Under the pieces are notes generated by a model. It was not told the DNA's origin. It did no database searches and saw nothing but the letters and a program-made list of their open reading frames with translations. A stretch of DNA of 61,860 nucleotides, filler included, from a bacterium (lineage in GTDB: Bacteria > JAMORN01): NCBI GenBank assembly GCA_027063545.1. It is 13 parts of 13 records of this genome, joined end to end, with 100 filler letters (N's around TTAATTAATTAA, not from the genome) between each part and the next. Parts side by side here need not be neighbours in the genome. Positions count along the whole stretch, not along the records: positions 40,973 to 44,420 come from JAMORN010000271.1; 12 more parts are not named here. One strand, given 5' to 3'. The translations under genes were made by a program, and so were the position numbers. Shown here in pieces: positions 6,464-44,420 of the stretch. Position 1 is the first letter of the stretch; each line of letters starts with the position of its first letter.

Positions 6464-6497
6464 TATTACCCTCCTATTTAGAGACTTCTAATACAAA

Positions 6498-7625: not shown

Positions 7626-7629
7626 ATTA

Positions 7630-7959: not shown

Positions 7960-8016
7960 AGCCTTTTTTTTATTTAATATAATATTTTTTTTCTTTTTTT
8001 CTAGATGTACACTACC

Positions 8017-8259: not shown

Positions 8260-8275
8260 AAGTTATAAATCCTTT

Positions 8276-11424: not shown

Positions 11425-11441
11425 CCATCCTCTCCTTTATT

Positions 11442-11912: not shown

Positions 11913-11927
11913 ATCTTATCTCCATTA

Positions 11928-12302
11928 TTATTCTTTTGGTTTTTTTACTCCATATCTAGAACGAGATTTTCTTCTTCCTTCTACCCCTGCTGTATCTAAA
12001 GCTCCTCTTATTATATGATATCTAACACCTGGTAAATCCTTAACTCTTCCACCCTCTACTAATACTATTGAGTGTTCCTGTAAATTATGTCCTTCTCCCG
12101 GAATATATGCTGTAACTTCATAACCATTAGATAATCTCACTCTTGCTATCTTTCTCAACGCAGAATTAGGTTTCTTAGGGGTCATAGTTGTTACTCTTAC
12201 ACATACCCCTCTTTTTTGAGGTGATCCTTGTAAAGCTCTCGCTCTTATTTTTTTCTTCTTTGGTTCTCTTCCATATCTCACTAATTGATTAATGGTTGGC
12301 AA
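11928..12302 (-). CDS. rpsL: 30S ribosomal protein S12
   Basis: [35 protein letters not shown] start. Confidence 0.98.
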
Positions 12303-12340
12303 CTTATTCCTCCTGTTTTCTACTTTTTTGGGACTTTGTA

Positions 12341-12369
12341 AATATAGTTTTTTTACTATTAAATGTCAA
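12341..12369 (-). promoter_or_regulatory. Sigma70-type promoter of the rpsL (str) operon
   Basis: TTGACA-17 nt-TATATT on the minus strand in the rpoC-rpsL gap. Confidence 0.7.
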
Positions 12370-12390
12370 AAGTTTTTTTATTGTAATGTG

Positions 12391-15300: not shown

Positions 15301-16479
15301 TTGAGAATATCCTTTTTCTTCTAATTTTGCAATAACAAAAGGCTTAAATAATTCAAGAGCCATTACCTTAGGAACACCTGCTTCAAAAATCTTAAGTTCT
15401 GGCCCTACTACAATTACAGAACGTCCAGAATAATCAACTCTTTTACCCAAAAGATTCTGACGAAATCTTCCCTTTTTACCTTTTAACATTTCAGATAAAG
15501 ATTTTAAAGGCCTTCTATTTTCCCCTTTATAAACAAATTTTCTCTTACCATTATCTATTAATGCGTCAACTGCTTCTTGAAGCATTCTCTTTTCATTTCT
15601 CAAAATTATATCAGGAGCATCTATCTCTATTAATTTCTTTAATCTATTATTTCTATTTATAACTCTTCTATATAAATCATTCAAATCACTAGAAGCAAAT
15701 CTACCACCTTCAAGAGGAACTAATGGTCTAAGCTCTGGTGGTAATACTGGTAATACTTCATATACCATCCATTCTGGTCTATTACCTGAATGTCTTAATC
15801 TATCAATGACTTTTAATCTTTTTAAAAGAACTTGCCTTTTTTGTTCAGATTGCTCTAATTCTATTTTTGTTTTTAAATCAATTACTTCCTTTTCCAGCTC
15901 AATTTCTTGAAGAAGTTTTTTTATAGCCTCTCCACCCATTAAAGCTTCAAATTCATATCCTTGTTCTCTTAATTCTTCATACTCTTCTTCTGTTAAAAGT
16001 TGAAGCCTTTTCAAAGGTGCATTCCCAGGATCAGTCACTATATATGCTTCATAATAAATTACCTGTTCCAATGCCTTAGATGTAATATTTAAAAGAGTTG
16101 CTATAATTGAAGGAGTATTTGTATAAAACCATATATGAACAACAGGTATTGCTAACTCAATATGCCCCATTCTTTCTCTTCTAACTCTATGAGTTGTTAC
16201 CTCAACACCACATTTATCACATATTATTCCTTTATATCTTATTCTTTTATATTTTCCACAAGCACATTCATAATCTTTTACAGGTCCAAATATTCTTTCA
16301 CAAAATAATCCATCAAATTCTGGTTTATAAGTCTTATAATTTATAGTTTCTGGTTTTTTAACTTCACCATAAGACCACTTTCTAATTACTTCTGGTGAGG
16401 CTAATTTTATATATATTTTAGAAAATTCATCTGTTTTGTCTTTATTTGAAAATGGCTCAAATAATAATTTTATAGACAC
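12391..16479 (-). CDS. rpoC: RNA polymerase beta' subunit
   Basis: NADFDGDQM catalytic motif, Zn-finger cysteines, [13 protein letters not shown]. Confidence 0.99.
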
Positions 16480-16515
16480 CTTTAGCCTCCATTTTTTTTA
16501 TTTTAGAAAATTTAA

Positions 16516-19500: not shown

Positions 19501-20292
19501 AATAACCTCGTACTTTTCAGCTATAACTTCATCAGTTCTAGAATCTATAACCTCTTCTGCTAACACTTTACCAATTATATCTATAGGTTTATCGTCATTT
19601 ATATTAATAGTCTTTTTATTCAGGAAAAGTTCCATTAATTCTTCATTAGTAGAATATCCTAAAGGTCTCAATAATATTGTAACAGGAATTTTCTTATTTT
19701 TACCTAAATTAATATAAATTCCTGTAGAATCTATATAGAATTCAATCCAAGAACCTCTATAGGGAATTATTCTTGCTGAAATTACTCTCCTTCCATTCTG
19801 GATATCTTCAGAAAAGAATATACCAGCACTTCTATGAAGCTGTGATACTATTACTCTTTCATTTCCATTTATTATAAAAGAACCACTTTCTGTCATTAAA
19901 GGGATATCACCTAAGTATACTTCATTTGTTATCTTTTCTGCAAATTTTCTCTCCCCTGTTTTTTTATTAGTCTTATATTTTAAAAGAGAAAATTTTATCT
20001 TTAAAGGTGCACCATAAGTTAACCCTCTATCTTTACATTCTTTTATACTGTATTTTGGTATCCCAATATTATACCCCTCATATTCTAAAATATATTCTCC
20101 ATTATCTCCATCATCTATTGGAAAATTTTCTCTAAAAACAGCTTCTAATCCTTTATTTTCTCTTTTTTCAGGAGGAACATCTGGTTGAAGAAAATCTCTA
20201 TATGATTTTAATTGAATTTCTAATAAATTTTCTACATCAAATTCAAATTCTTTTTTCCCTAAAAATTTTCTTTCTATTGTTTTCCCTTCCAA
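16516..20292 (-). CDS. rpoB: RNA polymerase beta subunit
   Basis: SQFMDQTNPL, ETPEGPNIGLI, GDKLAGRHGNKG, GGQRFGEMEVWALEAYGA. Confidence 0.99.
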   Translation of the reverse strand: MEGKTIERKFLGKKEFEFDVENLLEIQLKSYRDFLQPDVPPEKRENKGLEAVFRENFPIDDGDNGEYILEYEGYNIGIPKYSIKECKDRGLTYGAPLKIKFSLLKYKTNKKTGERKFAEKITNEVYLGDIPLMTESGSFIINGNERVIVSQLHRSAGIFFSEDIQNGRRVISARIIPYRGSWIEFYIDSTGIYINLGKNKKIPVTILLRPLGYSTNEELMELFLNKKTININDDKPIDIIGKVLAEEVIDSRTDEVIAEKYEVITETLLEDLKEKGIEEIEVWDINPRESTNLVYKTIVGDKCNDYLDALKTIYNLIRTGELPSENAAREMMNRIFFSERTYYLGEIGRYRLNMKLYGNPEGLEGKKIDSNVLTVDDIVEIVKKLMYYYDNDEELDDIDHLANRRVRPVGELLELRFADALNRLVRQIREKLKTTKDITNVNDLVNARSVYTVIMSFFQTSQLSQFMDQTNPLAELTNKRRLSSLGPGGLDRERAGFEVRDVHYTHYGRICPVETPEGPNIGLIVSLANYARLNEYGFLITPYRKVVDGKITDEIVYLTADEEEEYIIAPADINVDDEGNIIDSNIIARQKGEIILVSAKDVQLMDVSTNQLVGVSASLIPFLEHDDANRALMGSNMQRQAVPLLRPEAPIVGTGREKKPSIDIKAVVTAKRGGKVVYVDAEKIIIKPDDSNDNILDLFEEDIYVLRKFERSNQNTTINQRPLVREGDIVKAGDVIADGMATDRGELALGRNMFIAFMSWQGFNFEDAIIVSERILHDDVLTSIHIEEYEVEVRDTNRGPEEITREIPNYSEELVKNLDENGIIRIGARVKPGDILVGKITPKGETQLSPEEKLLKAIFGEKASDVKDTSLRVDPGVKGIVIDTKILSRKKETKSARQQEKEKINKIKEEYESKIRRVLEKTIEALIKLMEGKLSKNIVDSYTKRPLIKEGTKLTKDVIESIPFDRIDISEELVDDKDTNVKIREVIETSKKLIQELETRLNIEIEKEMRGDELRADVIQLVKVYIATKKKLAVGDKLAGRHGNKGVVSKIASIADMPFMDDGTPIDVLLNPLGIPSRMNIGQLLETHLGWAAYKQGYYVKVPVFNGPSIETIKEELKKAGLPEDGKVRLRDGRTGEYFDNKVTVGIMYIMKLNHLVTDKIHARSIGPYSLITQQPLGGKSQFGGQRFGEMEVWALEAYGAAYTLQELLTVKSDDVVGRTKVYEAIVKGQNLPKFGIPESFKVLISEIRAIGINIYAE

Positions 20293-20350
20293 GACTCTTC
20301 TCCTTTAGTAGGAGTTTATAAATGTTTAATGACTAAATATAAATAAAATA

Positions 20351-20399
20351 AGAAGATACTTTCCTCCCCCCTTAAATCTAGGAGAGAAAAGTATCTTCT
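20351..20399 (-). terminator. Hairpin terminator/attenuator between rplL and rpoB
   Basis: On the minus strand, AGAAGATACTTTTCTCTCCT pairs with GGGGGAGGAAAGTATCTTCT and is followed by TATTTTATTT. Confidence 0.65.
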
Positions 20400-20431
20400 A
20401 TATAAAATAAAATCCTTTAATCATAGATGAA

Positions 20432-20815
20432 TTACTTAATTTCTACCTTAGCCCCTACAGCTTCTAATTTAGCTTTAATTTCTTCAGCTTCTTCTTTCTT
20501 TAATCCTTCTTTTAACACTTTAGGAGCACTTTCTACAACTTCTTTAGCTTCCTTTAACCCCAATCCTGTTATCTCTCTTACAACTTTTATAACTTTAACC
20601 TTTTCAGATCCTGCAGATACTAATTCAACAGAAAACTCTGTTTTTTCTTCTTGAGCACCAGCATCAGCACCTGCTGTACCTGGGACAGCAGCAACAGCTA
20701 CTGGAGCTGCAGCACTAACTCCAAATTCTTCTTCTAAAGCTTTAACTAATTCACTTAATTCTAAAACTGTTAATCCTTTGATTTCCTCAATGATTCCTTG
20801 AATCTTGTCGCTCAT
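20432..20815 (-). CDS. rplL: 50S ribosomal protein L7/L12
   Basis: [24 protein letters not shown] and [12 protein letters not shown]. Confidence 0.98.
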
Positions 20816-20849
20816 CTTTATCTCCTCCCATTATATGTTATTTTTTATG

Positions 20850-21374
20850 TTAACCTTCTTTTGATTTTTTCTCTTCAATTGCTTTAATTACACCAACTAA
20901 ATTTCTTAATAAACCTGACAATACAAATACAAGTCCAGAAATAGGTGCTTGAACACCACCAACAACCCTTGCCAGTAACTCTTCTCTTGTTGGCAATTTA
21001 GAAATAGCCTCTATATCTTTATCAACATAAACCTTTCCTTGATAGTAAACAGCTTTAAATTTAGGTAAACCATTATGTTCTTTACTAAAATTATTTACAG
21101 CTTTTACTACATGAACTAAATCTTCTCCAACAACTAGAGCAGTATCCTCTTTAAGATAATCTTCTAAGCCTTCTATCTTCAAAGATTCAAAAGCTTTATT
21201 TAATATAGTATTTTTAACTACTTTAAATGTAATACCTTCCTTTTTTAAAATTCTTCTTAATTTATTATCATCCTGAGCCTTCAATCCTTTAAAAGATACT
21301 AATACTATTATTTCATTATTTTCTAACAAATCTTTTACCATATTTAACATTTCTATATTTCTCTGACTAGCCAT
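20850..21374 (-). CDS. rplJ: 50S ribosomal protein L10
   Basis: FKVVKNT and ISKLPTREELLA; operon position. Confidence 0.95.
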   Translation of the reverse strand: MASQRNIEMLNMVKDLLENNEIIVLVSFKGLKAQDDNKLRRILKKEGITFKVVKNTILNKAFESLKIEGLEDYLKEDTALVVGEDLVHVVKAVNNFSKEHNGLPKFKAVYYQGKVYVDKDIEAISKLPTREELLARVVGGVQAPISGLVFVLSGLLRNLVGVIKAIEEKKSKEG

Positions 21375-21398
21375 CTTTACACCCCTAATTTTATTTTA

Positions 21399-22088
21399 TT
21401 ACTGTAGAGATTTTGGGTTTATCTTTAATCCTGGACCCATTGTACTAGATAAGTATACTCCTTTTATATAAGTCCCCTTTGAAGTAGCAGGTTTAGCCTT
21501 TAAAACAGCATTATAAAATGTCATAAAATTTTCTTTTAAAGCTTCTTTATCAAATGATCTTTTTCCTATTATTCCGTGAAGATTTCCTGTTTTATCTACC
21601 TTAAAATTTACTTTTCCCTTCTTTATATCCGCAATTACCTTCTTTAAATCATTAGTAACTGTACCTGTTTTAGGATTTGGCATCAAACCTCTTGGTCCCA
21701 ATATTCTACCTAATTTTCCTATTGCAGACATCATATCTGGAGTAGCAACAACAGCATCAAAATCAAGCCATCCGCCTTGTATCTTAGCAATTAAATCATC
21801 TGCTCCCACATAATCAGCTCCAGCTTCTCTAGCCTCATCTGCTTTCTCACCTTTTGCAAAAACCAATATTTTCATTTTCTTTCCTGTTCCATGAGGAAGA
21901 GTAACACTACCTCTTACCATTTGATCTGATTTTCTTGGATCTACCCCTAATCTAAAAACTACATCTACGGTCTCATCAAAATTAGCCGCAGGATTTTCTT
22001 TAATAAAATCTATAGCCTCATCAACAGTATACATTTTATTTGGATCAATCTTTTCTTTTATTTTAAGATACCTTTTTCCTCTCTTCAT
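21399..22088 (-). CDS. rplA: 50S ribosomal protein L1
   Basis: [37 protein letters not shown]. Confidence 0.98.
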
Positions 22089-22107
22089 AGTTATCTACCT
22101 CTCTATT

Positions 22108-22542
22108 TTATTTTTCATCATCTATTACAACAACACCCATATTCTTAGCAGTACCTTCCATCATTCTTATAGTAGCTTCTATATCATCTGTATTCATATC
22201 AACAATTTTCTTTTCAGCTAATTTTCTAAGTTGAGACCTTTTAATCTCACCTACTTTTTCTTTATTTGGTTTTCCAGAACCTTTTTCAATACCTAATTCT
22301 TTCTTTATCATATCAGCAGAAGACATTTGTTTTAATTCAAATGTAAAAGAACGATCTGAATATACTGTAATAATTACAGGTACTATTTCACCTTTTCTAT
22401 CTTGTGTCGCTGCATTAAATGCCTTACAAAATTCCATAATATTAATACCACGCTGACCTAATGCCGGACCTACAGGTGGAGCTGGTGTAGCATTCCCACC
22501 AGGAATTCTTAATCTTAACTTACCTACTTCTTCCTTTGCCAC
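22108..22542 (-). CDS. rplK: 50S ribosomal protein L11
   Basis: [27 protein letters not shown]. Confidence 0.98.
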
Positions 22543-22561
22543 TTTTACTCTCCTTTTTTAT

Positions 22562-23092
22562 TTAAGACATAGGAATAACATCTTTAAATTCAACTTCTAT
22601 AGGTGTTTCCCTACCTAAAACAGTAATCATTACTTCTAATTTTCCTTTTTCATAATCTATATTATTAATTTTACCCATAAAATCTTTAAATGGTCCATTA
22701 ACAATCTTAACTGTTCCACCTTCCTCAAAATCAGATTCAAAACTCACATTATCCGGTCTCCTAATGATTTTTTGGACCTCTTTTTCACTCATCGGTTTAG
22801 GACCACGTCTATCACCAACAAATTTTACAACTCCCTCAATATTGGATATTTCATACATTAAATTTTCATCATAAACCATTTTTATAAAAACATAACTTGG
22901 TAAAACCTTTTTCTTTTTCTCCCTTATTTTTCCTCTTTCATGAACCCTAACTATATCTATTGGAACTTCTACAGATTCAATATAATCTTGTAAATTTCTT
23001 GTTTCTATCAATGTCTCTATAGCTTCTTTAACATCATCTTCCCTACCAGAAAGTGTCTGAATAGCATACCACTTTTTTATTAATTCCGCCAT
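22562..23092 (-). CDS. nusG: Transcription termination/antitermination factor NusG
   Basis: KWYAIQTLSGRE and LPSYVF; KOW motif GPFKDFMG; GRETPIEVEF. Confidence 0.96.
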   Translation of the reverse strand: MAELIKKWYAIQTLSGREDDVKEAIETLIETRNLQDYIESVEVPIDIVRVHERGKIREKKKKVLPSYVFIKMVYDENLMYEISNIEGVVKFVGDRRGPKPMSEKEVQKIIRRPDNVSFESDFEEGGTVKIVNGPFKDFMGKINNIDYEKGKLEVMITVLGRETPIEVEFKDVIPMS

Positions 23093-23104
23093 AATCTTCC
23101 CTTA

Positions 23105-23299
23105 TTATTTCATTATTTTAATAATCTGGTCTAAAAATAAATTTATCAAATAATCCACTGCAAATATGTAGATACCAAAAATAATAATTATAACAAAAAC
23201 AATCAAAGTTGAATCTATTAATTCTTTATTTGTCGGCCACTCAACTTTAGACCATTCAGTAATTACTTCTTTATAAAACTTCTTTATCTTTTCAAACAT
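23105..23299 (-). CDS. secE: Preprotein translocase subunit SecE
   Basis: EWSKVEWPT followed by one transmembrane helix; lies between tRNA-Trp and nusG. Confidence 0.92.
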   Translation of the reverse strand: MFEKIKKFYKEVITEWSKVEWPTNKELIDSTLIVFVIIIIFGIYIFAVDYLINLFLDQIIKIMK

Positions 23300-23349
23300 A
23301 CCCAACCCTATTTAAATACTTTTTAAATACTTATATAAGTTTCATTCTC

Positions 23350-23422
23350 CAGGCCCGGAGGGACTCGAACCCCCGATCTTCGGATTTGGAGTCCGATGCT
23401 TTACCAACTAAGCTACGGGCCT
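23350..23422 (-). tRNA. tRNA-Trp (CCA)
   Basis: AGGCCCGTAGCTTAGTTGGTAAAGCATCGGACTCCAAATCCGAAGATCGGGGGTTCGAGTCCCTCCGGGCCTG folds as a cloverleaf with anticodon CCA. Confidence 0.97.
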
Positions 23423-23449
23423 GTAAAAATCAATCTATACACCTCTTTT

Positions 23450-23602
23450 CTATCTAGTTTCTTTATGAATTGTATGCTTATTACAATAAGGACAATATTT
23501 TTTATACTCTACCCTTTCTGGGTGCTTTCTTTTGTTCTTTGTTGTAGTATAATTTCTATGTTTACAAACTGTACATTCCAAAGTAATAATTTCCCTAGCC
23601 AT
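23450..23602 (-). CDS. rpmG: 50S ribosomal protein L33 (Zn-binding CxxC/CxxC form); not in the ORF track
   Basis: Manual translation: [50 protein letters not shown]. Confidence 0.97.
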
Positions 23603-23629
23603 AGCATTCTATCCTCTTCTTTATTATAA

Positions 23630-24823
23630 TTATTCTATTATCTTTGTTACTACTCCAGCTCCTACTGTCTTCCCTCCCTCTCTTATAGCAAATCTTAAAT
23701 TCTCTTCCATTGCTATCGGATATATTAACTCTATTGTCATCTTTACATTATCTCCTGGCATTACTACTTCTGTCCCCTCTGGTAATGATATTATTGTACC
23801 TGTCACGTCTGTTGTCCTAAAATAAAATTGTGGCCTATATCCTGCATGAAATGGCTTATGTCTTCCTCCCTCCTCTGGCTTCAACACATATACTTCTGCC
23901 TCAAATTTCTTATGGGGTGTTATTGTACCTGGCTGTGCTAATACCATTCCTCTCTTTACTTCTTTCTTCTCTATCCCTCTCAATAATACACCAACATTAT
24001 CTCCTGCTATCCCCTCATCTAACTCCTTCCTAAACATCTCTACTCCTGTAACTACTGTCTTCTTTGTCTCTCCTAAACCTACTATCTCTACTTCATCTCC
24101 TACCTTCACCTTCCCTCTCTCTATCCTTCCTGTCACTACTGTCCCTCTTCCTGTTATACTAAATACATCCTCTATCGGCATTAAAAATGGCTTATCTACA
24201 TCTCTTACTGGCTCTGGTATATACTCATCTAATGCATTCAATAACTTCTCTATACTTGGTAACCCTATATCACTTGTATCTCCTTCCAATGCCTTCAATG
24301 CACTACCCTTTATTACAGGTACCTCTTCTCCTGGATACCCATGCTCACTCAATAAATCCCTTACTTCCATCTCTACTAACTCTAATAACTCTGGATCATT
24401 CTCTTGATCTACCTTGTTTATATATACTACTATCGCTGGTACATTAACTTGCTTTGCTAATAACACGTGCTCTCTTGTCTGTGGCATCACTCCATCTGTC
24501 GCTGCAACCACCAATATAGCTCCATCCATCTGAGCCGCACCTGTAATCATGTTCTTTATATAATCTGCGTGTCCAGGACAATCTACGTGAGCATAATGCC
24601 TCTTATCTGTCTCATACTCTACGTGTGCTGTGTTTATTGTAATACCTCTCGCTTTCTCCTCTGGTGCATTATCTATTTCCTCATAACTCTTTTGCTCCGC
24701 CTTACCCTTCTGTGCTAAATAATGTGTTATAGCAGCTGTCAATGTAGTCTTCCCATGATCTACGTGACCTATTGTCCCTACATTTATATGTGGCTTATTC
24801 CTAACAAACTTTTCCTTTGCCAT
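23630..24823 (-). CDS. tuf: Elongation factor Tu
   Basis: [39 protein letters not shown]. Confidence 0.99.
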
Positions 24824-24914
24824 CCCTTCACCTCTCTTTTTTCTCGTTTATTTTCTATTTTGACGATATTATTTTTATTTTTTTATAAACACATAAGAAA
24901 TATAGCTATCTTTT

Positions 24915-24987
24915 AGCTCACGACCGGACTTGAACCGGCGACCCCGTCCTTACCAAGGACGTGCTCTACCTCCTGAGCTACGTGAGC
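24915..24987 (-). tRNA. tRNA-Thr (GGT)
   Basis: GCTCACGTAGCTCAGG...GTCCTTGGTAAGGAC...GGTTCAAGTCC...GTGAGCT. Confidence 0.96.
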
Positions 24988-25105
24988 TTTCAACAAACAC
25001 TTTTTTTCAACAAAAAAAAGCAAAATTGTAAATAAAAAAAATTACAAACAATTTATTTAAAAGAACTTAATAACTTACCATACATATCTATTTATAAATA
25101 AAAAA

Positions 25106-25179
25106 AGCGGGTGATGGGACTCGAACCCACAACCCTCGCCTTGGAAGGGCGATGCTCTAGCCAATTGAGCTACACCCGC
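25106..25179 (-). tRNA. tRNA-Gly (TCC)
   Basis: GCGGGTGTAGCTCAATTGG...TCGCCCTTCCAAGGCGA...GGTTCGAGTCC...CACCCGCT. Confidence 0.96.
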
Positions 25180-25218
25180 TTACCTTAAACAATAAAACTC
25201 CAAATTATATCTTAAATA

Positions 25219-25301
25219 TGGACGGGGGTGGATTCGAACCACCGTAGGCTTACGCCGGCAGGTTTACAGCCTGCTGCCTTTGACCGCTCGGCCACCCGTC
25301 C
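25219..25301 (-). tRNA. tRNA-Tyr (GTA)
   Basis: GGACGGGTGGCCGAGCGG...GCAGGCTGTAAACCTGC with a long variable arm and GGTTCGAATCC. Confidence 0.96.
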
Positions 25302-25316
25302 ATTTATATATATTTA

Positions 25317-25389
25317 AGCCACCAGAGGGATTTGAACCCCCGACCCGCGGTTTACAAGACCGCTGCTCTACCAACTGAGCTATGGTGGC
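25317..25389 (-). tRNA. tRNA-Thr (TGT)
   Basis: GCCACCATAGCTCAGTTGG...GCGGTCTTGTAAACCGC...GGTTCAAATCC. Completes the classic Thr-Tyr-Gly-Thr-tuf operon. Confidence 0.96.
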
Positions 25390-25430
25390 TTATATTTCGT
25401 TTCTAAAGACCTCTATTTTATACGGCTTAT

Positions 25431-25459
25431 AAAATAATTATTTAAAAAATAAATGTCAA
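25431..25459 (-). promoter_or_regulatory. Sigma70-type promoter of the tRNA-tuf operon
   Basis: TTGACA-17 nt-TATTTT about 40 nt upstream of tRNA-Thr(TGT). Confidence 0.55.
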
Positions 25460-25490
25460 TATTTTTTTTAAAAAAGATTTTAAATACTTT

Positions 25491-26114
25491 CTATAAAGTA
25501 TCTAAGAAAAATCTAATAACTTTAATATCTCTTAACATTTTTTTATTTAAAGGTAGCATAAAGATAGGGTCTTTTATTTTTTTACTTATTAGAGATTCTA
25601 CATTTTTAGGAGTAATATCATGGATATCAATTTGTTCATAAATTAAAGCACCTAGTTTATAGTTTAATAAAGTTGAATATTTAAATATGGAATCTATAGG
25701 AATATCCCGATTAAAAATATATAAAAAATTTACATTTAATCTTAAGTTTCTATTAGGGTACAGTATATCTACTTTTGTATAAATTTCATTCATATTATCT
25801 TTAATTGTCCTTATATTAATAGATGTAGTTATATTTTCTATGTTATATTTAGAATGAAAATTAAAATCTTGAGCTAAAATCTCCCGTACTTTTGAATCTG
25901 AAGTGTCTAACTTTTCTAATATTCTTTTATTTTCTGATAAAATTGAGTCTATATATAATGAATCACTCAAATTAATTTCTAATGAGTCTATATTATTTTT
26001 CATATTGGGAGGATTTTTAACATAAGATATTAAATAAAATATAAGAAATATATTAATAATTAGTAAAACAACTAATATAATAATTATAGTTTTATGTTTT
26101 TTAAATTGAACCAT
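25491..26114 (-). CDS. Hypothetical protein with N-terminal membrane anchor
   Basis: 207-aa ORF with one N-terminal hydrophobic helix; its start overlaps the stop of the LOG gene. Confidence 0.7.
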   Translation of the reverse strand: MVQFKKHKTIIIILVVLLIINIFLIFYLISYVKNPPNMKNNIDSLEINLSDSLYIDSILSENKRILEKLDTSDSKVREILAQDFNFHSKYNIENITTSINIRTIKDNMNEIYTKVDILYPNRNLRLNVNFLYIFNRDIPIDSIFKYSTLLNYKLGALIYEQIDIHDITPKNVESLISKKIKDPIFMLPLNKKMLRDIKVIRFFLDTL

Positions 26115-26745
26115 AAAATCTTTTCACCTCTTCTAAACTTTCCTCTGGGGTTTCAACTATTCTAAATAGATCCATATCCTCAGGAGATATTAACTTCCTT
26201 TCTTTTAAATACTGCTCTATCCACTCAATTAGTGGAAGCCAAAACTCTTTTCCAAATAAAACTATTGGAATTCTTTCTATTCTATGGGTCTGAACCAATG
26301 TTATCACTTCAAAAAGTTCATCTAATGTTCCAAAACCACCCGGAAAAACCAAAACTGCCTTTGTATATTTTATAAACATTACCTTTCTTACAAAAAAATA
26401 CTTAAATGTTAAGAGTTTTGTTATATATTTGTTTGGCCTTTGCTCAAATGGAAGTTTTATATTAAGACCTATTGTTTCTTTTTCAACCTCATAAGCGCCC
26501 CTATTCCCTGCTTCCATAATACCAGGACCACCGCCAGTAATAACAGTATATCCATTTTTAGCAAATAAAGAAGCAGTTTCTTTTGCAAGTTTATAATATT
26601 TATCATTCTCCTTTAATCTTGCAGATCCAAATATTGTCACTGCCTTCTCTATACCACTTAAATTATCTATACCTTCAATAAATTCTCCCATTATCCTTAA
26701 TACTCTCCAAGACTCTTCTATATCAGGCATATCTTTTATATTCAT
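26101..26745 (-). CDS. LOG family protein (TIGR00730-like nucleotide phosphoribohydrolase)
   Basis: VTIFGSAR, ITGGGPGIMEAGNRGA, FFVRKVMF, PGGFGTLDELFE. Confidence 0.93.
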   Translation of the reverse strand: MNIKDMPDIEESWRVLRIMGEFIEGIDNLSGIEKAVTIFGSARLKENDKYYKLAKETASLFAKNGYTVITGGGPGIMEAGNRGAYEVEKETIGLNIKLPFEQRPNKYITKLLTFKYFFVRKVMFIKYTKAVLVFPGGFGTLDELFEVITLVQTHRIERIPIVLFGKEFWLPLIEWIEQYLKERKLISPEDMDLFRIVETPEESLEEVKRFYGSI

Positions 26746-26772
26746 TCTACTTCTCCTTTTTTCATTCTTTTT

Positions 26773-27846
26773 TTATATAAGATAATATACTAAACTATTA
26801 AACAACTTCCAACCCTTAATTGTCGGTTTAATTTTATTTTTTTCTATATAAATAAATCCTTCCTTTTCTAAAAAAGAAATATACTCTTTTTTAACTAAAC
26901 TTATATCAATACCCTCATAAAATCTTAGACCTAAAAAAATCTCTTCCTCTCTTATTTCTTCTTTATTTAATTTATTAGAACTTTTAAATTTATCTAAAAT
27001 ACTATTTGTAAAAAAATCATTAAAATCATAACTGTAATAAAATCTTCTCTCTTTAAAAAAACTATGGCTTGCTGGACCCAAACCTATATAATACTCTCTC
27101 CTCCAATATTTTATATTATGAATAGAAAAATATCCTCTTTCCCCATAATTTGATACTTCATAATGAATAAAGCCTAACTCCCTTAGTTTCATATCAATAT
27201 AATCATAAAGATAATCAAATTCCTCCTCATCTATCTTTATATTATCCTTATAAAATTTTGTTCCTTCTTCTATTGTTAATTCATAAAAAGAAGCATGGGG
27301 TATTTTAAATTTTTTTATATAAAAAATTGCATCATCAACCAACTTTTTATTATTAAACCCAGGGATATTATAAATAATATCAATACTAAAATTATCGTAC
27401 TCCCTTGACAATAACTCCAATGTTTTAATATTATCCTCTTTTGAATGTACTCTTCCTAAAAATTTTAAAACATTATCATTAAAATTCTGAATCCCCAAAG
27501 AAATTCTTGTAATACCAATCTCTTTATACAATCTAAAATCTTCAACAGTTTTAGGATTAACCTCTAAGGTAATCTCTTTTATTTGAGTGTTTTTATATCT
27601 AAAAATTTCATTTAATATTCTATCTAAATCTCTAATATCAATAAGAGAAGGGGTTCCTCCTCCAAAATAAACAGTATCTATTTTATACTCTTCAAACTCT
27701 GGAAGTTGATTTAAAAGTTTTATATCACTTATTAATTTCTCTATATATTTACTGTAAAGAGCATCTTTGAATCTTACAGAGAAAAACTTACAATAAAAAC
27801 ATTTACTTAAACAAAAGGGAAAATGTATATAAAGTCCTACATTCAT
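26773..27846 (-). CDS. hemW: Radical SAM heme chaperone HemW (HemN-like)
   Basis: LYIHFPFCLSKCFYC, YFGGGTPS, HYEVSN, HNIKYW, YIGLGPASHS. Confidence 0.88.
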   Translation of the reverse strand: MNVGLYIHFPFCLSKCFYCKFFSVRFKDALYSKYIEKLISDIKLLNQLPEFEEYKIDTVYFGGGTPSLIDIRDLDRILNEIFRYKNTQIKEITLEVNPKTVEDFRLYKEIGITRISLGIQNFNDNVLKFLGRVHSKEDNIKTLELLSREYDNFSIDIIYNIPGFNNKKLVDDAIFYIKKFKIPHASFYELTIEEGTKFYKDNIKIDEEEFDYLYDYIDMKLRELGFIHYEVSNYGERGYFSIHNIKYWRREYYIGLGPASHSFFKERRFYYSYDFNDFFTNSILDKFKSSNKLNKEEIREEEIFLGLRFYEGIDISLVKKEYISFLEKEGFIYIEKNKIKPTIKGWKLFNSLVYYLI

Positions 27847-28982
27847 AACATTTTTAATATCTCAATCCAATCTTTTATTACCTTAGGAATAATATCTGGT
27901 GGTAGAAAGAATCTACTACTATGCCAGGGATAAAACCTATCCTTTCCATTATTTATCCCAAAAAACACATAAAAAATCTCTGTATATTTGCCAAAATAAG
28001 AAAATGTTTCCCCTCCCAAAGAAGGCTCAATCTCTTTATACTTTATATTTAAATTATCAAATAAATCCTTAATCTTACTATAAACCAAACTTGAGTTTTC
28101 AAGTATTGGATAAAAACTTTCAAATACATTAATCTTATAATTAATCCCTACAAACTTAGAAACACTCTCAAGTAAAACTAAAAATTTATCTTCTAAAAGT
28201 TTTACATTTTCTCTATTTAATGTTCTCAGTGTCCCTTTAAAGTTTAATCTATCTGGTATTATATTAAAAACTTCACCAGCTTTAACACTTCCTATAGAAG
28301 CAATTGTAGAAGAGGTTGGAGAAGTAAATCTTGAAATTAATCCTTGAAGTTGTGTATTAAATAAACTAAAAGCATATATAGGATCCTCACCCTCATGAGG
28401 ATAGGCTGCATGTGTTGATGAGCCAATAAAATCTATATCAAACTCATAAACCTCTGCCATTATAGGACCTTTTCTTATTCCATAAACCCCATAATCTAAA
28501 AATGGATGATTATGAAAAGCAATAATAAAATCCACATTTTTAAGAAACTCTTTATCATCCTCTACTATAAATCTAGCACCTCCTGGAGGTGATTCTTCTG
28601 ATGGCTCAAAATAAAAAACAATATTATAATCTAAATCTAATCTTGAAAGTTCTACAATTAAACCAACAAGAATTGAAATATGGCTATCATGACCACAAGC
28701 ATGCATTCTTCCACTTATTTTTGATTTATACTCCAAAGAAGTCTCTTCATTTATCGGCAAAGCATCAAGTTCGCTTCTAAAACCAATTACTCTATCTTTT
28801 CCATTATTTATAAAAACTTTAAGGCCATTTTTTCCAATCTCTGCAATTTCAATATGATCCATATTGGAAAACTCTTTTATATAAGAGATAACTCTATCTT
28901 TTGTTCTATCTACCTCAAATCCTATCTCTGGATTGGAATGAATATCTTTAAAAAACTCAATAATACTAGCTTCTTTTCTCAT
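27843..28982 (-). CDS. M20D-family amidohydrolase
   Basis: HSNPEIGFE, ELDALP, MHACGHD, FEPSEE, HAAYPH. Confidence 0.9.
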   Translation of the reverse strand: MRKEASIIEFFKDIHSNPEIGFEVDRTKDRVISYIKEFSNMDHIEIAEIGKNGLKVFINNGKDRVIGFRSELDALPINEETSLEYKSKISGRMHACGHDSHISILVGLIVELSRLDLDYNIVFYFEPSEESPPGGARFIVEDDKEFLKNVDFIIAFHNHPFLDYGVYGIRKGPIMAEVYEFDIDFIGSSTHAAYPHEGEDPIYAFSLFNTQLQGLISRFTSPTSSTIASIGSVKAGEVFNIIPDRLNFKGTLRTLNRENVKLLEDKFLVLLESVSKFVGINYKINVFESFYPILENSSLVYSKIKDLFDNLNIKYKEIEPSLGGETFSYFGKYTEIFYVFFGINNGKDRFYPWHSSRFFLPPDIIPKVIKDWIEILKML

Positions 28983-28986
28983 ATTT

Positions 28987-29769
28987 TTATCCTTTTTCTA
29001 ATTTTCTTTTTGCAAAGATTAAATAAGCAGTATGAGCACTCATAATGTCCTCAGGTCTAAATCTTTCTGGAACAATTTTATAGTTTCTTACTAATATCTC
29101 TTTTACCTCTATAGAATCAAAATAAATTCTTATATTTTTAAGTAAGTCTATTACCTGATTAGTGGTTGGAAGAAGAAAACAAACATTTGCAGAAGGTTTT
29201 AAAACATCAAAAAGCTCATTAAGTATAGGATTTGGTTCTCGTATATCAACAAAAGCCTTATCTATCTTTAAATCCTTAAACTCTTTTTGGAAGTTCTTTA
29301 AATTAAACTCCTGATTTAAAAGGGTAATATTATCATATATTTTAAACTTTTCAATATTCTTCTTTGCGTTTTTATAAAGTCGCTCTTCCTTTTCAAAGGA
29401 TATTAGTTTTCCACTTTCCTTTAGAAGATAAGAAAAAACTAAACTAGCAGCCCCACTTCCTGTCCCAAACTCAAGCATTACATCATTTTCTAATATATTT
29501 AACTTACTAGCAATATAAAAACTATCCTTAGGATAGACTATTTGGGTCAAACGATTTATACCATACAGTATTATATCCTCTATTGTTGGCTTAAATATTG
29601 TTATCTCCCCTATTTTTATACCATAAGGCTTTCCTATTAAATCCTTATATTGAATATTTCCTTTTTTATAAGAAAAATTATGCTCAATATTTACCCTTTT
29701 TAAATACCTTTTATCATCATAATTTATTAATATCCAATCACCCTCTTTAATTAACTCCAAACCTTTCAT
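28987..29769 (-). CDS. trmI: tRNA (adenine58-N1)-methyltransferase TrmI (GCD14 family)
   Basis: RLTQIVYPKD, EFGTGSG, FVDIREP, RPEDIMSAHTAYLIFA. Start moved to the ATG at 29769, downstream of GAGAGG. Confidence 0.88.
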   Translation of the reverse strand: MKGLELIKEGDWILINYDDKRYLKRVNIEHNFSYKKGNIQYKDLIGKPYGIKIGEITIFKPTIEDIILYGINRLTQIVYPKDSFYIASKLNILENDVMLEFGTGSGAASLVFSYLLKESGKLISFEKEERLYKNAKKNIEKFKIYDNITLLNQEFNLKNFQKEFKDLKIDKAFVDIREPNPILNELFDVLKPSANVCFLLPTTNQVIDLLKNIRIYFDSIEVKEILVRNYKIVPERFRPEDIMSAHTAYLIFAKRKLEKG

Positions 29770-30026
29770 ATCATTAAAAAACCTCTCATTTTTATTTTTC
29801 CGTTTATCTTTTTTATTCAAAAATAATTTATTGTAAAACAAAAAATTAAATTTTATTTTATAATATGGGATTTGTGAAAAAAATCATAAAAAATTCAAAA
29901 CGTTCAAAACTCTGTTTTTGTTGGTGGGACGGATGGGGAAAATAGTTTTTTGTCTTCTTTAAATTTTTTTCTTATTAAAAAATAAAAAAGTCTTTTATTA
30001 ATAGTTTAATTAAAAAAGGAGGGAAC

Positions 30027-30113
30027 ATGGAGAAACTAAAAATGCTTCCTACTTCTATTTTTGCTTCTATTATGGGTACTGGTATTTTATCTGTTTGTCT
30101 ATATTTAGGTGGA
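30027..30113 (+). CDS. TDT/SLAC1-family transporter, N-terminal fragment (3' truncated)
   Basis: AGGAGG RBS followed by MEKLKMLPTSIFASIMGTGILS; FAxxMGTG is typical of the first TDT helix. Confidence 0.6.
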
Positions 30114-40972: not shown

Positions 40973-41367
40973 ATTAAATAAGCATGCTTATTATACCAAT
41001 TTAATGGTGCTCTTTTTATTCTTTCTGTTAAATCGTTTATTTCATACTTTAAAGTGGCAAATAAACTTTCATAATTTAAATCCCAAAGCATCAAATTATG
41101 TTCTATTAAAGTAAGTGTATCTAATTCAGAAACTTTAAAATAATTACATCTATCAAACTCATCTTTAAATAAATCTAATTCAATAAACTTCTTTTTAATA
41201 TCTAAAAATTTAGTAACTATTCGAGAAAGTTCACTTGCACTAAAATATAATGCCGCTGTTCCCTTAGGGATTTTTGCTGGTCTTAACAAAGTATCTTGTA
41301 GTTTATGCTGTATTTTATTAATACCTTCAATATCATTCAAAGACTCTATTAAAAAATTATGTATCAT
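40973..41367 (-). CDS. Hypothetical protein (3' truncated)
   Basis: Open frame of at least 131 aa with AGGA upstream; no recognisable motif. Confidence 0.6.
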
Positions 41368-41453
41368 TTATATTCCTGTTGTATCAAAACTTGCTAAAAT
41401 TTCATTTTTATATATTTCTCTATAAATAGAAAGTTATTATTTGGTGCTAATTC

Positions 41454-41588
41454 TTATAAAACAAATTTATTAAAAACTATCACTGCTTCTGCTTCAGTTT
41501 CAAAATATTCTTTTCCACCTGTAAACTCTCCAGTTAATCTGTCATTTGAATTAATACTTATTCTGTAGTTGTTTATCGCTTTTGTCAT
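41454..41588 (-). CDS. Small hypothetical protein (44 aa; possibly a disrupted gene extending to 41368)
   Basis: MTKAINNYRISINSNDRLTGEFTGGKEYFETEAEAVIVFNKFVL*, preceded by an AAAGG RBS and a TATAAT promoter motif. Confidence 0.5.
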   Translation of the reverse strand: MTKAINNYRISINSNDRLTGEFTGGKEYFETEAEAVIVFNKFVL

Positions 41589-41609
41589 TATATAACCTTT
41601 ATGTGTTTT

Positions 41610-41640
41610 TCTATAATAATTATAACATAATAAATATTAA
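41610..41640 (-). promoter_or_regulatory. Promoter motif copy 1 (TTAATA-N10-TATAAT-TATTATAGA)
   Basis: Similar copy at 43155-43186; both head minus-strand gene runs. Confidence 0.55.
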
Positions 41641-41647
41641 AATAAGA

Positions 41648-41968
41648 TTAAACGAAGTACTCTGGATAAATTTTTTCCTTCTTTTTCAACCACTCTTGAG
41701 TTTTATCTATACTTTTGAAATTTTCATTAATTTTCCAGTCGTTATTCTCATAATTAATTGCTTGTTCCTTTAATCCCTGAACCTGTTTAATAGCAGTAAC
41801 TATTTTTGCCTCATTAATATCATAAAACGGAAAAACAGTTGAACTTCCATAATTTCCATTAAATTTTAATTTTTCAAATTTACTTACATGGATAGTTCTT
41901 AATTTTCTAATGTCATCTAAACCCTTTTCTGAATATATTTTTAAAATATTCAGTTGGTCATCTACCAT
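41648..41968 (-). CDS. Hypothetical protein ending in YPEYFV
   Basis: Start reassigned from 42148 to about 41968 to avoid a 158-nt overlap. C-terminal tag shared with four neighbours. Confidence 0.7.
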   Translation of the reverse strand: MVDDQLNILKIYSEKGLDDIRKLRTIHVSKFEKLKFNGNYGSSTVFPFYDINEAKIVTAIKQVQGLKEQAINYENNDWKINENFKSIDKTQEWLKKKEKIYPEYFV

Positions 41969-41990
41969 TGCATAAACTATTTTTAATCCT

Positions 41991-42260
41991 TTATAACCAG
42001 TACTCTGGATGTGTTCCTTCCATGTTTTCCATCTCTCTCCAAGATGGTTCTTTTTCAAATTCAAACAATATATCTTTTTTAAAAAAATGTAATTCATTAT
42101 ATGCAACATCATAAAACCAAAGAACTTTTGATTTCCAATCTCTGCCAATTTTACTCTTTTCTATTATATTTACCACAAAATAACAAGGTTGATCTTCTGA
42201 GTGCTTCGAACCTTTTTCAATAATATTATCTGTTTTTATTAATACAAATTTACCAATCAT
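41991..42260 (-). CDS. Hypothetical protein ending in HPEYWL
   Basis: ATGA overlap with the upstream gene; shared C-terminal tag. Confidence 0.75.
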   Translation of the reverse strand: MIGKFVLIKTDNIIEKGSKHSEDQPCYFVVNIIEKSKIGRDWKSKVLWFYDVAYNELHFFKKDILFEFEKEPSWREMENMEGTHPEYWL

Positions 42261-42523
42261 AGAAATATCTCAGGATATTCTGTTTCTAGTGTTCGAGCAT
42301 TTATAGCTCCTAATATTAGTTGTACATCTTTATCATAAAATGTGGTGGTATTAAGATTACTTTTATCTATACTTTTAATAATAGTACTTGCATACGCTTG
42401 GACTTTTTTTGAAGGTTTTATCGTATCTATTTTTACAACAGCATCTACTCTTACAACATGCTGAATATCATTACGGTCTTTTATTAAAACATAATCACCT
42501 TTTAATACTTCTCTTTTTTTCAT
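42257..42523 (-). CDS. Hypothetical protein ending in YPEIFL
   Basis: ATGA overlap; shared C-terminal tag. Confidence 0.75.
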   Translation of the reverse strand: MKKREVLKGDYVLIKDRNDIQHVVRVDAVVKIDTIKPSKKVQAYASTIIKSIDKSNLNTTTFYDKDVQLILGAINARTLETEYPEIFL

Positions 42524-42999
42524 ATATACATCTCCGGGTATTTGTTTTCAATATATTGATAATCAAAAAACTCCTTCATTTCTTCTTTATTTTGTAGTTT
42601 TACGATTGTTTCTATATTAAAGTTTTTTAAGGGGTCTTCTAGTTTAATTAAAATCGTTTTTCGATTTCGGAGTTTCATTAACATTTCGGTTATCACTCCA
42701 AAATAATTCATTGCTATTCTAGAACGATAAAATAGCACCTGCATTGATTTTGATACTCCCTTTTCTACTATTAGAGAATCAAAATCAACAACTGGTTCTG
42801 AAGACTTGTAATTACTTATTACAAAGTCTAGGAATTCTGGGTCCTCTAAAAGTTGTTTCATTTTTCTAGTTGTGAACATTCCTGCTTCTTGAAATTTCTC
42901 ATTGTGTTCAAAATATTTAGTAATATTGTTAAGTTCAATCGTATATCCGGAATATAAATCTCCATTGGTGTGAGTTATTTTTAATTCATTTATTTTCAA
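42520..42999 (-). CDS. Hypothetical protein ending in YPEMYI
   Basis: TTG start in a TTGA overlap, preceded by GGAGG; shared C-terminal tag. Confidence 0.75.
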   Translation of the reverse strand: MKINELKITHTNGDLYSGYTIELNNITKYFEHNEKFQEAGMFTTRKMKQLLEDPEFLDFVISNYKSSEPVVDFDSLIVEKGVSKSMQVLFYRSRIAMNYFGVITEMLMKLRNRKTILIKLEDPLKNFNIETIVKLQNKEEMKEFFDYQYIENKYPEMYI

Positions 43000-43124
43000 A
43001 TATATACCTCCGGATATTTACTAGGGATTTCTTCTAAATTGCAATTTATCCATAAATCATAATTAGTAACATAAGCAATAGTACCTTTAAGAGGTGCCGG
43101 ACCTTTTTCTCCAATAATAAACAT
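42996..43124 (-). CDS. 42-aa hypothetical protein ending in YPEVYI (not in the ORF track)
   Basis: MFIIGEKGPAPLKGTIAYVTNYDLWINCNLEEIPSKYPEVYI*, with an AGGTG RBS. Its stop overlaps the next start. Confidence 0.7.
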   Translation of the reverse strand: MFIIGEKGPAPLKGTIAYVTNYDLWINCNLEEIPSKYPEVYI

Positions 43125-43154
43125 TATTTTGCACCTATAATTAATAACTTTCTA

Positions 43155-43186
43155 TCTATAATAAATTATATAATAAAATTACTTAA
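43155..43186 (-). promoter_or_regulatory. Promoter motif copy 2 (TTAAGT-N10-TATAAT-TTATTATAGA)
   Basis: Lies 30 nt upstream of the first tagged ORF and matches copy 1. Confidence 0.55.
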
Positions 43187-43188
43187 TA

Positions 43189-43204
43189 TATAAATAAATA
43201 TAAA
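43189..43204 (+). repeat. 16-bp direct repeat TATAAATAAATATAAA, copy 1 (before tnpA)
   Basis: Identical to 43821-43836; each copy runs into an AAAGG RBS. Confidence 0.7.
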
Positions 43205-43213
43205 AGGAAATAA

Positions 43214-43813
43214 ATGAGTTATATAAACGCTAAGAAAATAAAAGAGATTTTGGGCATTACAAGTCAAACTTTAAATAATTATAGAAGACAAGGAAAGGTT
43301 AAATACAAAGAATTAAATAGTAGGAATTTCTTATATGATATAGATAGTTTAATGCTCACAAAACCCAAAGATAAAAATCAAGTTATATATTGTAGAGTAA
43401 GTAATACTAAACAAAAAGAAGACTTAGAAAAGCAAGAAAAAATATTAAGGGAATTTATTGCTTCTAAAGGTATTATAGTAGATAAGGTATATAAAGATAT
43501 AGCTTCTGGAATGAATGAAGATAGGAAGGGTTTTAATGCTCTTATTAAAGAAGTACAAAATGGTAATATAGATACTATATATATTTCTTATAAAGATAGA
43601 CTTACTAGATTTGGCTATAATTATATAGAAAAATGGTTTAGTAGTTATGGAACAGATATAGTATATATAAATTTTACCAAAGAAGAAGATTTTCAAACTG
43701 AATTAACACAGGATTTAATATCTATAATACATCATTTTAGTATGAAAATGTATAGTAATAGAAGAAAGATGTTAAAATCTGTACAAGAAAATCTTAAAAA
43801 TAATATTATATAA
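43214..43813 (+). CDS. tnpA: IS607-family transposase TnpA (MerR-like HTH + serine recombinase)
   Basis: N-terminal HTH (LGITSQTL), IYCRVSNTKQKEDL, DIASGMN, YKDRLTRFGY, DLISIIHHFSMKMYSNRR. Confidence 0.93.
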   Translation: MSYINAKKIKEILGITSQTLNNYRRQGKVKYKELNSRNFLYDIDSLMLTKPKDKNQVIYCRVSNTKQKEDLEKQEKILREFIASKGIIVDKVYKDIASGMNEDRKGFNALIKEVQNGNIDTIYISYKDRLTRFGYNYIEKWFSSYGTDIVYINFTKEEDFQTELTQDLISIIHHFSMKMYSNRRKMLKSVQENLKNNII

Positions 43814-43820
43814 ATAATTG

Positions 43821-43836
43821 TATAAATAAATATAAA
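43821..43836 (+). repeat. 16-bp direct repeat TATAAATAAATATAAA, copy 2 (before tnpB)
   Basis: Identical to 43189-43204. Confidence 0.7.
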
Positions 43837-43846
43837 GGGGTTAAAT

Positions 43847-44420
43847 ATGGAATTAGTAAGAACAAACAAATATAGACTATATCCTAATGCTAAACAAAAA
43901 GCATTATTAGATAAACAATTTAACCTCTATAGATTTACCTATAATAATGTTTTAGGTAAGATACAAGATAATTATTTTGGTGTGTACACTATAGAAAAAG
44001 GCAAAAATAAAGGTCAAGTGAGACCTAAGATACCTAATCAAACTGGTATAGTAGGTTTTAGTACTAAATTAAAAGAAGAATATTCTTTTATTAATAAATT
44101 ACCTAATGATTTTATACAATCTAGTTTATCTAATTTATATCTTGGTATGAAGGAATTTATAAAACAACCAGATAGAGGATATCCTAAATTTAAGAGTAAA
44201 AAGACATCTAAAAAGACTATAGGTATGAAGGCTGGTTCTAGAGTTAAAATAGAAGATAACCATATACAATTAAATAAAAGCAATAAGTCATCTTATACTA
44301 AAGAAGACCATAAAATAAAATTTAAGAAACATAAAACAAACCATAATATAGGTAAAATAACAGGTTTTACTATAGAAAAAGATAACCTAGATAAGTACTG
44401 AATAACCATAACACATAAGA
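43847..44420 (+). pseudogene. tnpB: TnpB (IS605/IS607 OrfB RNA-guided nuclease), N-terminal half with an in-frame TGA at 44399-44401; truncated by the contig end
   Basis: KYRLYPNAKQ, YRFTYN and GYPKFKSKK motifs. The frame continues DKY*ITITHK, matching the TnpB KY(W/Y/F)-hydrophobic strand. Confidence 0.75.

Follow-up and report, generated by a model that had tools for sequence, protein, structure and literature searches.

The DNA analysed here (61,860 nucleotides, filler included; hereafter the window) comes from the bacterial genome assembly GCA_027063545.1 (GTDB lineage Bacteria; JAMORN01), and our subject is a row of five adjacent minus-strand open reading frames (ORFs) at 41648-43124, each closed by the strict C-terminal tail [YH]-P-E-x-[FYW]-[VIL]-stop. 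ORF1 (42996..43124) has 42 amino acids and ends in KYPEVYI, its tag codons and stop occupying 42996-43016; the sequence CCGGAGGT within this tag is the Shine-Dalgarno site of ORF2, and the TTG start of ORF2 overlaps the TGA stop of ORF1. ORF2 (42520..42999; 159 amino acids, ending KYPEMYI; tag at 42520-42540) and ORF3 (42257..42523; 88 amino acids, ending EYPEIFL; tag at 42257-42277) are both connected to the following gene by an ATGA overlap. ORF4 (41991..42260; 89 amino acids, ending THPEYWL; tag at 41991-42011) and ORF5 (41648..41968; 106 amino acids from the ATG at 41968, ending IYPEYFV; tag at 41648-41668) have the stop codon TAA, and no overlap follows either of them; downstream of ORF5 there is a 59-nucleotide spacer with a promoter-like site and no overlapping gene. 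The open frame of ORF5 reaches 42148, and its start at the ATG is not certain. This ATG is without a good Shine-Dalgarno site, and AAAGGA stands 6 nucleotides before an in-frame ATA that precedes this ATG by five codons.

The first-pass annotation of this DNA had reported five adjacent, co-oriented tagged ORFs and no other ORF of the window ending in this way, and both statements hold. In the six-frame translation of the window exactly 5 of the 715 stop-to-stop frames of at least 30 codons end in the strict motif, the wider motif [YHF]PE.[FYW][VIL] occurs five times, always at the ends of these ORFs, and the sole other frame ending in PE plus three residues is a 32-codon frame on the plus strand. 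Chance is no explanation for five tails in the window. The variation described for the proline codons was likewise found (CCG, CCG, CCT, CCA and CCA), and the glutamate codon is GAG in all five. Two of the earlier statements needed correction: Glu does stand three residues before the Y/H in four of the five window tails, but this is not general, since the Vibrio phage phiKT1024 (see below) has mostly Lys or Arg there, and the five members are those complete in the window, a sixth at 40973-41367 being cut by the contig end. Compared with Pfam and PHROGs the five ORFs gave sub-threshold matches only and no common family, so that the suspicion that they might be full-length paralogues of one known domain was not borne out; the tail itself matches no Pfam or PHROG family either, in agreement with the earlier failure to name a described one. 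A scan of bacterial genomes for relatives of ORF2 found none. The ESM Atlas look-up of ORF5 returned no match scoring above 0.85, and the model of the Atlas itself was poor, with a predicted local distance difference test score (pLDDT) of 0.41.

The genes belong to a phage. The window consists of separate contigs joined by 12 linkers (N44-TTAATTAATTAA-N44) across 3575-58522, the pieces being mostly 3.3-3.6 kb with their size decreasing along the window, apart from a single 19.1-kb piece at 10997-30113. Cellular genes located past 40973 and 44420, recR and ybaB among them, therefore do not adjoin the five ORFs in the genome. The piece at 40973-44420 (JAMORN010000271.1) matches, with 100% identity, a section of a 96,768-base uncultured phage contig from a metagenome, hereafter the parent contig, which is also an IMG/VR record with an estimated completeness of 37%; the rest of the window had no match to the 20.5 kb of the parent contig that were compared. 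In the parent contig the array of tails continues with the sixth tagged gene, then a DUF2201_N/DUF2201 gene, then further tagged genes, and upstream there are an IS607-type insertion, one more tagged gene and a MoxR-type ATPase. When this contig was scanned with a loose DNA pattern of the tail, 17 matches were obtained in the forward direction, with none in reverse and none for a reversed-pattern control, and 15 of the 17 matches fall within 34.6-49.0 kb.

That the motif might be no commoner than background, a possibility the first-pass annotation had allowed for, was examined across phage records against the reversed-pattern control, and in some phages the tail is far above background. In phiKT1024, a cultured T4-like Vibrio phage of 191,289 bases which was reached via its MoxR gene, the DNA pattern gave 69 forward matches and none in reverse or for the control, and an ending in P-E-x-[FYWLCM]-[VILMF] was found for 74 of the 490 plus-strand ORFs and for 0 of the 423 minus-strand ORFs. 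None of these 74 tagged stops coincides with the end of a coding sequence of named function in the record, as judged by comparing the tables by eye. In a rough gene set of this phage 71 of the 304 plus-strand genes are tagged, and the proportion depends on size: 26/69 at 70-100 amino acids, 34/78 at 100-130 amino acids and 0/24 at 400 amino acids or more. A scan of IMG/VR with the DNA of K-Y-P-E-x-F-I-stop yielded 64 stretches, several of them sharing contigs, and the loose pattern was counted in 48 of the records found by tail DNA, the controls being 0-2 in the rich ones. The complete 103.5-kb genome G005 of an uncultured phage had 41 matches (5 forward and 36 reverse, control 0) and, by ORF calling, 49 tagged ORFs; other tail-rich records were G040 (35 matches), G028 (27), G035 (24), G016 (23) and G039 (21). 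Background counts only were seen in T4 (4 matches, control 4), Campylobacter phage F207 (1), the KVP40-like V09 (2), cyanophage S-CAM22 (2), Bacillus phage AR9 (1) and Alteromonas phage AD45-P1 (3). The corresponding scan of bacterial genomes for K-Y-P-E-x-F-I-stop DNA gave at least 120 stretches, with a single match in each one listed. According to a proteome comparison the tail-rich phages form at least two unrelated groups, with kinship among G005, G013, G020 and G035, and among phiKT1024, G006, G009, G019 and G040. These counts demonstrate that in several large phages with no other relationship roughly a fifth to a third of the genes carry the tail. Neither this scale, with dozens of tagged genes per phage in several lineages, nor the true phage context had been noticed in the first-pass annotation.

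The proteins that carry the tail have little else in common. When the last 10 residues were removed from 146 tagged proteins of five sources, the remainders fell into 124 BLASTP clusters, 107 of them singletons, and 143 tagged proteins gave Pfam matches in 12 families, with 1-2 members each, and PHROG matches in 8 families. The proteins range from 42 to 490 amino acids; besides UvrD helicase and nucleotidyltransferase, their Pfam families include the C-terminal domain of ribosomal protein L7/L12, matched by two tagged proteins (best E 2e-8), and a phage ProQ-C-like domain, matched by one. The longest example, a 490-amino-acid UvrD-like helicase of G035 (L116, 3113-4582), has a 19-residue C-terminal extension ending in CPEEFI, and three orthologues from related phages are without the extension and end in NAQYL, NATHL and NARYM. 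Within the window the bodies had been called largely unalignable. In the profile comparisons of ORF3 with ORF2, ORF4 and ORF5, hhalign aligned the ORF3 family profile with ORF5 over the last 14 columns only and with ORF2 over the last 17 only, so that in these pairs only the tail columns are shared; ORF3 and ORF4, on the other hand, share 34 columns (67% probability) and judging by this alignment may be distant paralogues over these last 34 aligned columns.

Conservation among relatives is strict. In a 1.3-kb contig with syntenic relatives (66% DNA identity) all four of four tails are kept, with changes within residue classes, and two homologues of ORF2, of 159 and 131 amino acids, retain the tail as YPEYYL and YPEYYI. 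The ORF3 family profile, when searched against 1.84 billion representative proteins, gave 12 matches. All 10 small homologues (24-57% identity) end in [YH]-P-[ED]-x-[FW]-[ILV], one having PD for PE, and nothing extends beyond; homologues lacking the motif or running past it, for which the first-pass annotation had asked us to look out, were thus not among them. The remaining two matches (700 and 380 amino acids) are internally repetitive, were matched in 5 stretches, and were dropped as spurious. The tail is portable across unrelated bodies and always strictly terminal.

The tail is selected as a peptide, and not through a recent duplication of DNA, as the first-pass annotation had already argued from the varied proline codons. 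In phiKT1024 Pro and Glu are invariant in 74 of 74 tails. In the 43 tails without an ATGA overlap with the next gene CCA is used in 29/43 and GAA in 35/43, which is close to the bulk of the phage (58% and 78%), while the 31 tails with such an overlap use CCG in 18/31 and GAG in 27/31, against a bulk of 8% and 22%. The non-overlapping tails stop at TAA, TAG or TGA, and the next gene has its own Shine-Dalgarno site after the stop. Furthermore, the 18 untagged genes of phiKT1024 that have an ATGA overlap have diverse ends, only 1 of them tail-like. Since codons are bulk-like where there is no overlap, and since overlaps occur with other ends, selection acts on the peptide, and an RNA signal alone does not account for the conservation of the tail. 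Where the next gene overlaps the stop (ATGA or TTGA), the synonymous positions of Pro-Glu are tuned to CCG-GAG for the Shine-Dalgarno site of that gene, a double role which the first-pass annotation had not noticed; it is a secondary use and not the cause of the tail. Beyond the last six residues the information profile of the phiKT1024 tails shows a hydrophobic position at -9, Lys/Arg at -8 and weaker positions at -12 and -14.

Structural modelling was informative for ORF3. Its model (mean pLDDT 88.7) has an SH3/Tudor-like barrel of five strands and two helices, at residues 76-82 and 84-87, the second of which is short and formed by the tag; the last block, in which the tail is helical, has a mean pLDDT of 87. 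Foldseek gave no match to this model at E 0.001 or better, the best matches being Tudor, PWWP, chromo-barrel and Sm-like barrels. The model of ORF2, made from a three-row alignment, had a mean pLDDT of 37.6 and was too low to use.

With regard to the partner reading the tail which the first-pass annotation had proposed, a phage gene pair was found that co-occurs, imperfectly, with the tail and is situated within the arrays of tagged genes. The DUF2201_N protein of the parent contig (E 5e-18) starts 10 nucleotides past the stop of the sixth tagged gene, outside the window; it has a zincin-type HESLH motif and the DVSGS metal site of a von Willebrand factor A (vWA) domain. The Pfam domains of the pair are AAA_5 for the MoxR protein and DUF2201_N plus DUF2201 for the vWA-zincin protein, and among the fetched homologues of the latter an exact HExxH was present in 5/7 and the DxSxS metal site in 7/7. 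G005 has 8 ORFs in common with phiKT1024 and 6 with the parent contig, and MoxR and vWA-zincin are common to all three at 36-44% identity. Of the records picked by the tail alone, G003, G005, G013, G016, G028 and G035 have both genes, and the vWA-zincin gene is additionally present in G029 and G044. In 5/6 genomes examined a tagged gene directly adjoins the vWA-zincin gene. There are exceptions in both directions, and a BLASTP search for a phage gene present in all tail-rich and no tail-poor records found none; a family common to G005, G039, G040 and phiKT1024 looked, by its sequence, like a GIY-YIG-type homing endonuclease.

Our preferred explanation, to which we give a probability of about 40% as a whole, is that the five ORFs are members of a large class of small phage proteins, most of them probably from early operons, which share a C-terminal module of about 13-15 residues. 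The module, a short amphipathic helix (hydrophobic at -9, Lys/Arg at -8) with [YHF]-P-E-x-[FLWY]-[ILV] and the stop after it, would serve as a common handle docking many different proteins onto one reader. The best candidate for this reader would be the own machinery of the phage, namely the MoxR AAA+ ATPase together with the vWA protein bearing a zincin (HExxH) peptidase head, in which the invariant Glu or the terminal carboxylate could be bound at the vWA metal site, and by this machine the tagged proteins would be remodelled, processed or destroyed at a scheduled time. The parts of this explanation are not equally firm: it is likely that the tail is a handle for one common reader, while the MoxR/vWA-zincin machine as this reader, and the outcome for the tagged proteins, are a guess. 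The boldest form, a proteome-wide address code used by several lineages of large phages, in which the portable tail would mark from a fifth to a third of all their proteins as clients of the phage MoxR and a vWA adaptor fused to a zinc peptidase, to be processed or removed at a set time, seems to us somewhat unlikely.

Several observations weigh against the handle and its proposed reader. The 87% complete G039, with 20 tails, and the 81.7-kb fragment G040, with 35, have neither gene of the pair; conversely AD45-P1, which has both genes, and AR9 and G044, which have the vWA-zincin gene, show the tail at background only. As phiKT1024 was found through its MoxR gene it is no independent case of co-occurrence, many of the co-occurrence records are kin or fragments, and the kinship among tail-rich records leaves few independent lineages. 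In the model of ORF3 the tail may lie against the domain it belongs to instead of being free, and the tighter packing of tagged genes leaves room for a translational role. Two co-folding runs of ORF3 (alignment of 13) and the vWA-zincin protein (alignment of 8), together with Mg and Zn, scored 0.00 and speak for neither side.

A rival explanation requires no common reader: the tail would be a structural end-cap, capping a helix and packing on the core, and either descended from one ancestral small protein, the many copies of which are no longer recognisable as related, or retained as a generally useful finish for a small domain. The tail of ORF3 is a confident helix after the last helix of the barrel, as in chromo-barrel and PWWP domains, the columns shared by ORF3 and ORF4 reach beyond the tail, several other tagged proteins of 80-93 amino acids begin with a similar strand pattern, and the hydrophobic positions -12, -9, -5 and -1 fit one face of a helix. 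An end-cap would hardly be expected, however, on proteins of such different lengths and unrelated Pfam families, nor as an extension added to a helicase whose orthologues do without it; the strict terminal position in the distant ORF3 homologues is not needed for a packing helix, and there are T4-like phages with similar small genes without the tail. We consider this explanation unlikely. The gene arrangement speaks for a different one, in which the RNA, or the nascent Pro-Glu-x-Phe-Ile at the stop, would help the ribosome to reach the next gene. Translational coupling typically involves an ATGA stop/start overlap and a downstream Shine-Dalgarno site inside the upstream gene, and 3/5 window tails and 31/74 phiKT1024 tails are in that arrangement: at three window junctions a purine-rich Shine-Dalgarno site 5-9 nucleotides upstream is combined with an overlap (GGAGGT with TTGA at ORF1/2, GGAG with ATGA at ORF2/3, GAG with ATGA at ORF3/4). 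In the phiKT1024 gene set 31/71 tagged and 18/233 untagged genes have the ATGA overlap, with CCG-GAG in the overlapping tails, and the next gene lies within 20 nucleotides in 50/66 tagged versus 55/146 untagged cases; the ribosome as reader would also explain the use of one tail in hosts as unlike as Vibrio and an organism of 27% G+C. Coupling constrains few bases, though, and here a six-residue peptide persists in the 43/74 phiKT1024 tails which have no overlap, bulk-like codons and a separate Shine-Dalgarno site; more than 60 nucleotides follow 9/66 tagged genes in phiKT1024 and 5/10 in the parent contig, with 59 after ORF5, and the diverse ends of untagged overlapping genes mean that the overlap does not force the peptide. 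To our knowledge, moreover, the nascent peptides known at stop codons hinder rather than help onward translation, and altogether a translation device appears quite improbable.

The same low likelihood is assigned to a tail which is a degradation or docking signal for some other reader, either a phage ClpP acting with a host unfoldase or a conserved hub protein of the host. ClpP (PF00574) occurs in 8 tail-rich records including G039, where the MoxR/vWA pair is missing, the last two residues of the tail are hydrophobic and stand at a free C-terminus, as in some protease recognition signals, and the failure of the proteome comparison to find a phage gene unique to tail-rich phages would agree with a reader of this kind. 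Nevertheless, ClpP is also found in the background-count records G044, G011 and AD45-P1 and is absent from the tail-rich G028 (85% complete), and in the two genomes inspected its neighbouring genes do not carry the tail. Nor would a host reader account for the lack of the tail in related T4-like phages of the same host genus, such as V09. Short terminal peptides that recruit one reader to many proteins are familiar from the ssrA tag, the acidic tip of SSB and clamp-binding motifs; the present tail differs from these in sequence, in being encoded in each gene and in standing on 20-30% of the genes of a phage. The ssrA-type ClpX degradation tag in particular is added by tmRNA and ends in ..LAA-COOH, and the tail is unlike it, being gene-encoded and ending in [FLWY]-[ILV]. 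Clamp-binding, PDZ-type and sortase-type signals were set aside, as the residues of the tail do not fit their patterns.

The nearest described logic to the proposed handle and reader is that of the vWA-MoxR-linked bacterial modules presented in passages of Kaur, Burroughs, Iyer and Aravind 2020 (PMC7159879), in which a zincin cleaves small fast-diverging precursors and releases a C-terminal peptide. The peptide types given there are FxSxx, RxD, an acidic run and an FtsH-associated one, some modules having in addition a radical-SAM enzyme, and the tail [YHF]-P-E-x-[FLWY]-[ILV] is none of these four. The likeness lies in the zincin-type metallopeptidase, the MoxR/vWA pair and the small diverging proteins conserved only in a C-terminal peptide: as in the FxSxx modules, a zincin-like metallopeptidase gene stands in the same neighbourhood, here in the parent contig outside the window, and small proteins of that kind are present. 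As far as those passages go, the modules are found in bacteria and have a single precursor or a few of them next to the peptidase, whereas here dozens of proteins, a helicase included, are tagged per genome in phages; moreover the peptidase is fused to a vWA domain, and the motif differs. A MoxR AAA+ / metallopeptidase-vWA pair was described for the 'group 2.2' jumbo phages by Iyer et al. 2021 (PMC7824862), where a role in virion assembly and in the processing of structural proteins was proposed. The neighbouring genes are the same pair, with AAA_5 in one protein and an N-terminal HExxH and C-terminal vWA (DUF2201_N plus DUF2201) in the other. The relevant passages of that article name no substrates or tags, and in the phages considered here the pair is situated among small non-structural genes, in contrast to the virion role proposed there; some phages with the pair, such as AD45-P1, have no tails. 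Full-text literature searches with motif strings, phages, accession numbers and general terms retrieved nothing on the tail, and the words motif and C-terminal are absent from the main texts of the phiTY18 and Pv27 papers. As far as these searches reach, the tail looks not to have been described in print.

The other features of the piece can be described briefly. The 5' part of the sixth tagged gene lies at 40973..41367 on the minus strand, truncated by the contig end and linker; in the parent contig its product has 206 amino acids and ends in IYPEWFL. Between it and ORF5 there is a 44-amino-acid minus-strand ORF (41454..41588) without the tail. On the plus strand an IS607-type insertion within the array of tagged genes occupies 43214..44420, up to the contig end at 44420. 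It has a serine recombinase at 43214-43813 and, at 43847-44401, the N-terminal part of TnpB; that the contig stops inside this element is probably the reason why the contig is so short. In L001 the element is at 7975-9786, and its TnpB is read as two ORFs of 184 and 179 amino acids. In the spacer after ORF5 there is a promoter-like extended -10 box, TATGTTATAAT (41619..41629, minus strand), which is not unique: in 53.9 kb of the parent contig the box T[AG]TGTTATAAT occurs 12 times on the coding strand, this site included, and 0 times on the other strand, usually with a TTTAAG-like box before it. The relatives L002 and L004 have it as well, and it seems to be the host-type promoter of the phage. 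A blastn search of the region against phage and plasmid records gave two short matches only, both on this promoter-like spacer (41582-41653), one in a Helicobacter phage record and one in a Campylobacter concisus plasmid, with 80-83% identity over 63-68 bases. Several genes of these phages are in pieces, namely a terminase large subunit-like gene (two pieces; parent contig 5120-8458), a vWA-zincin gene with a 340-amino-acid ORF inserted (L004, 12714-14507) and a ClpP gene (two pieces; G005 69435-70839), which suggests introns, inteins or homing endonuclease insertions.

In large phages most genes are small ORFs with neither relatives nor a known function, and a shared tail offers a way of approaching them: of the plus-strand genes of 70-130 amino acids in phiKT1024, 60/147 bear it. 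It can be used as an annotation marker which confirms short genes missed by gene callers, as in the case of the 42-amino-acid ORF1, and it defines a set of proteins which probably pass through one common step, a step for which cultured Vibrio phages of the Va1/phiKT1024 group are available as study objects. Should the ribosome be the reader, the tail would be a new kind of coupling signal. If instead the MoxR/vWA-peptidase pair is the reader, its phage substrates would be known for the first time, and if the proteome-wide address code were true, it would be a virus-owned tag-and-protease system and the first substrate rule for a MoxR/vWA machine.

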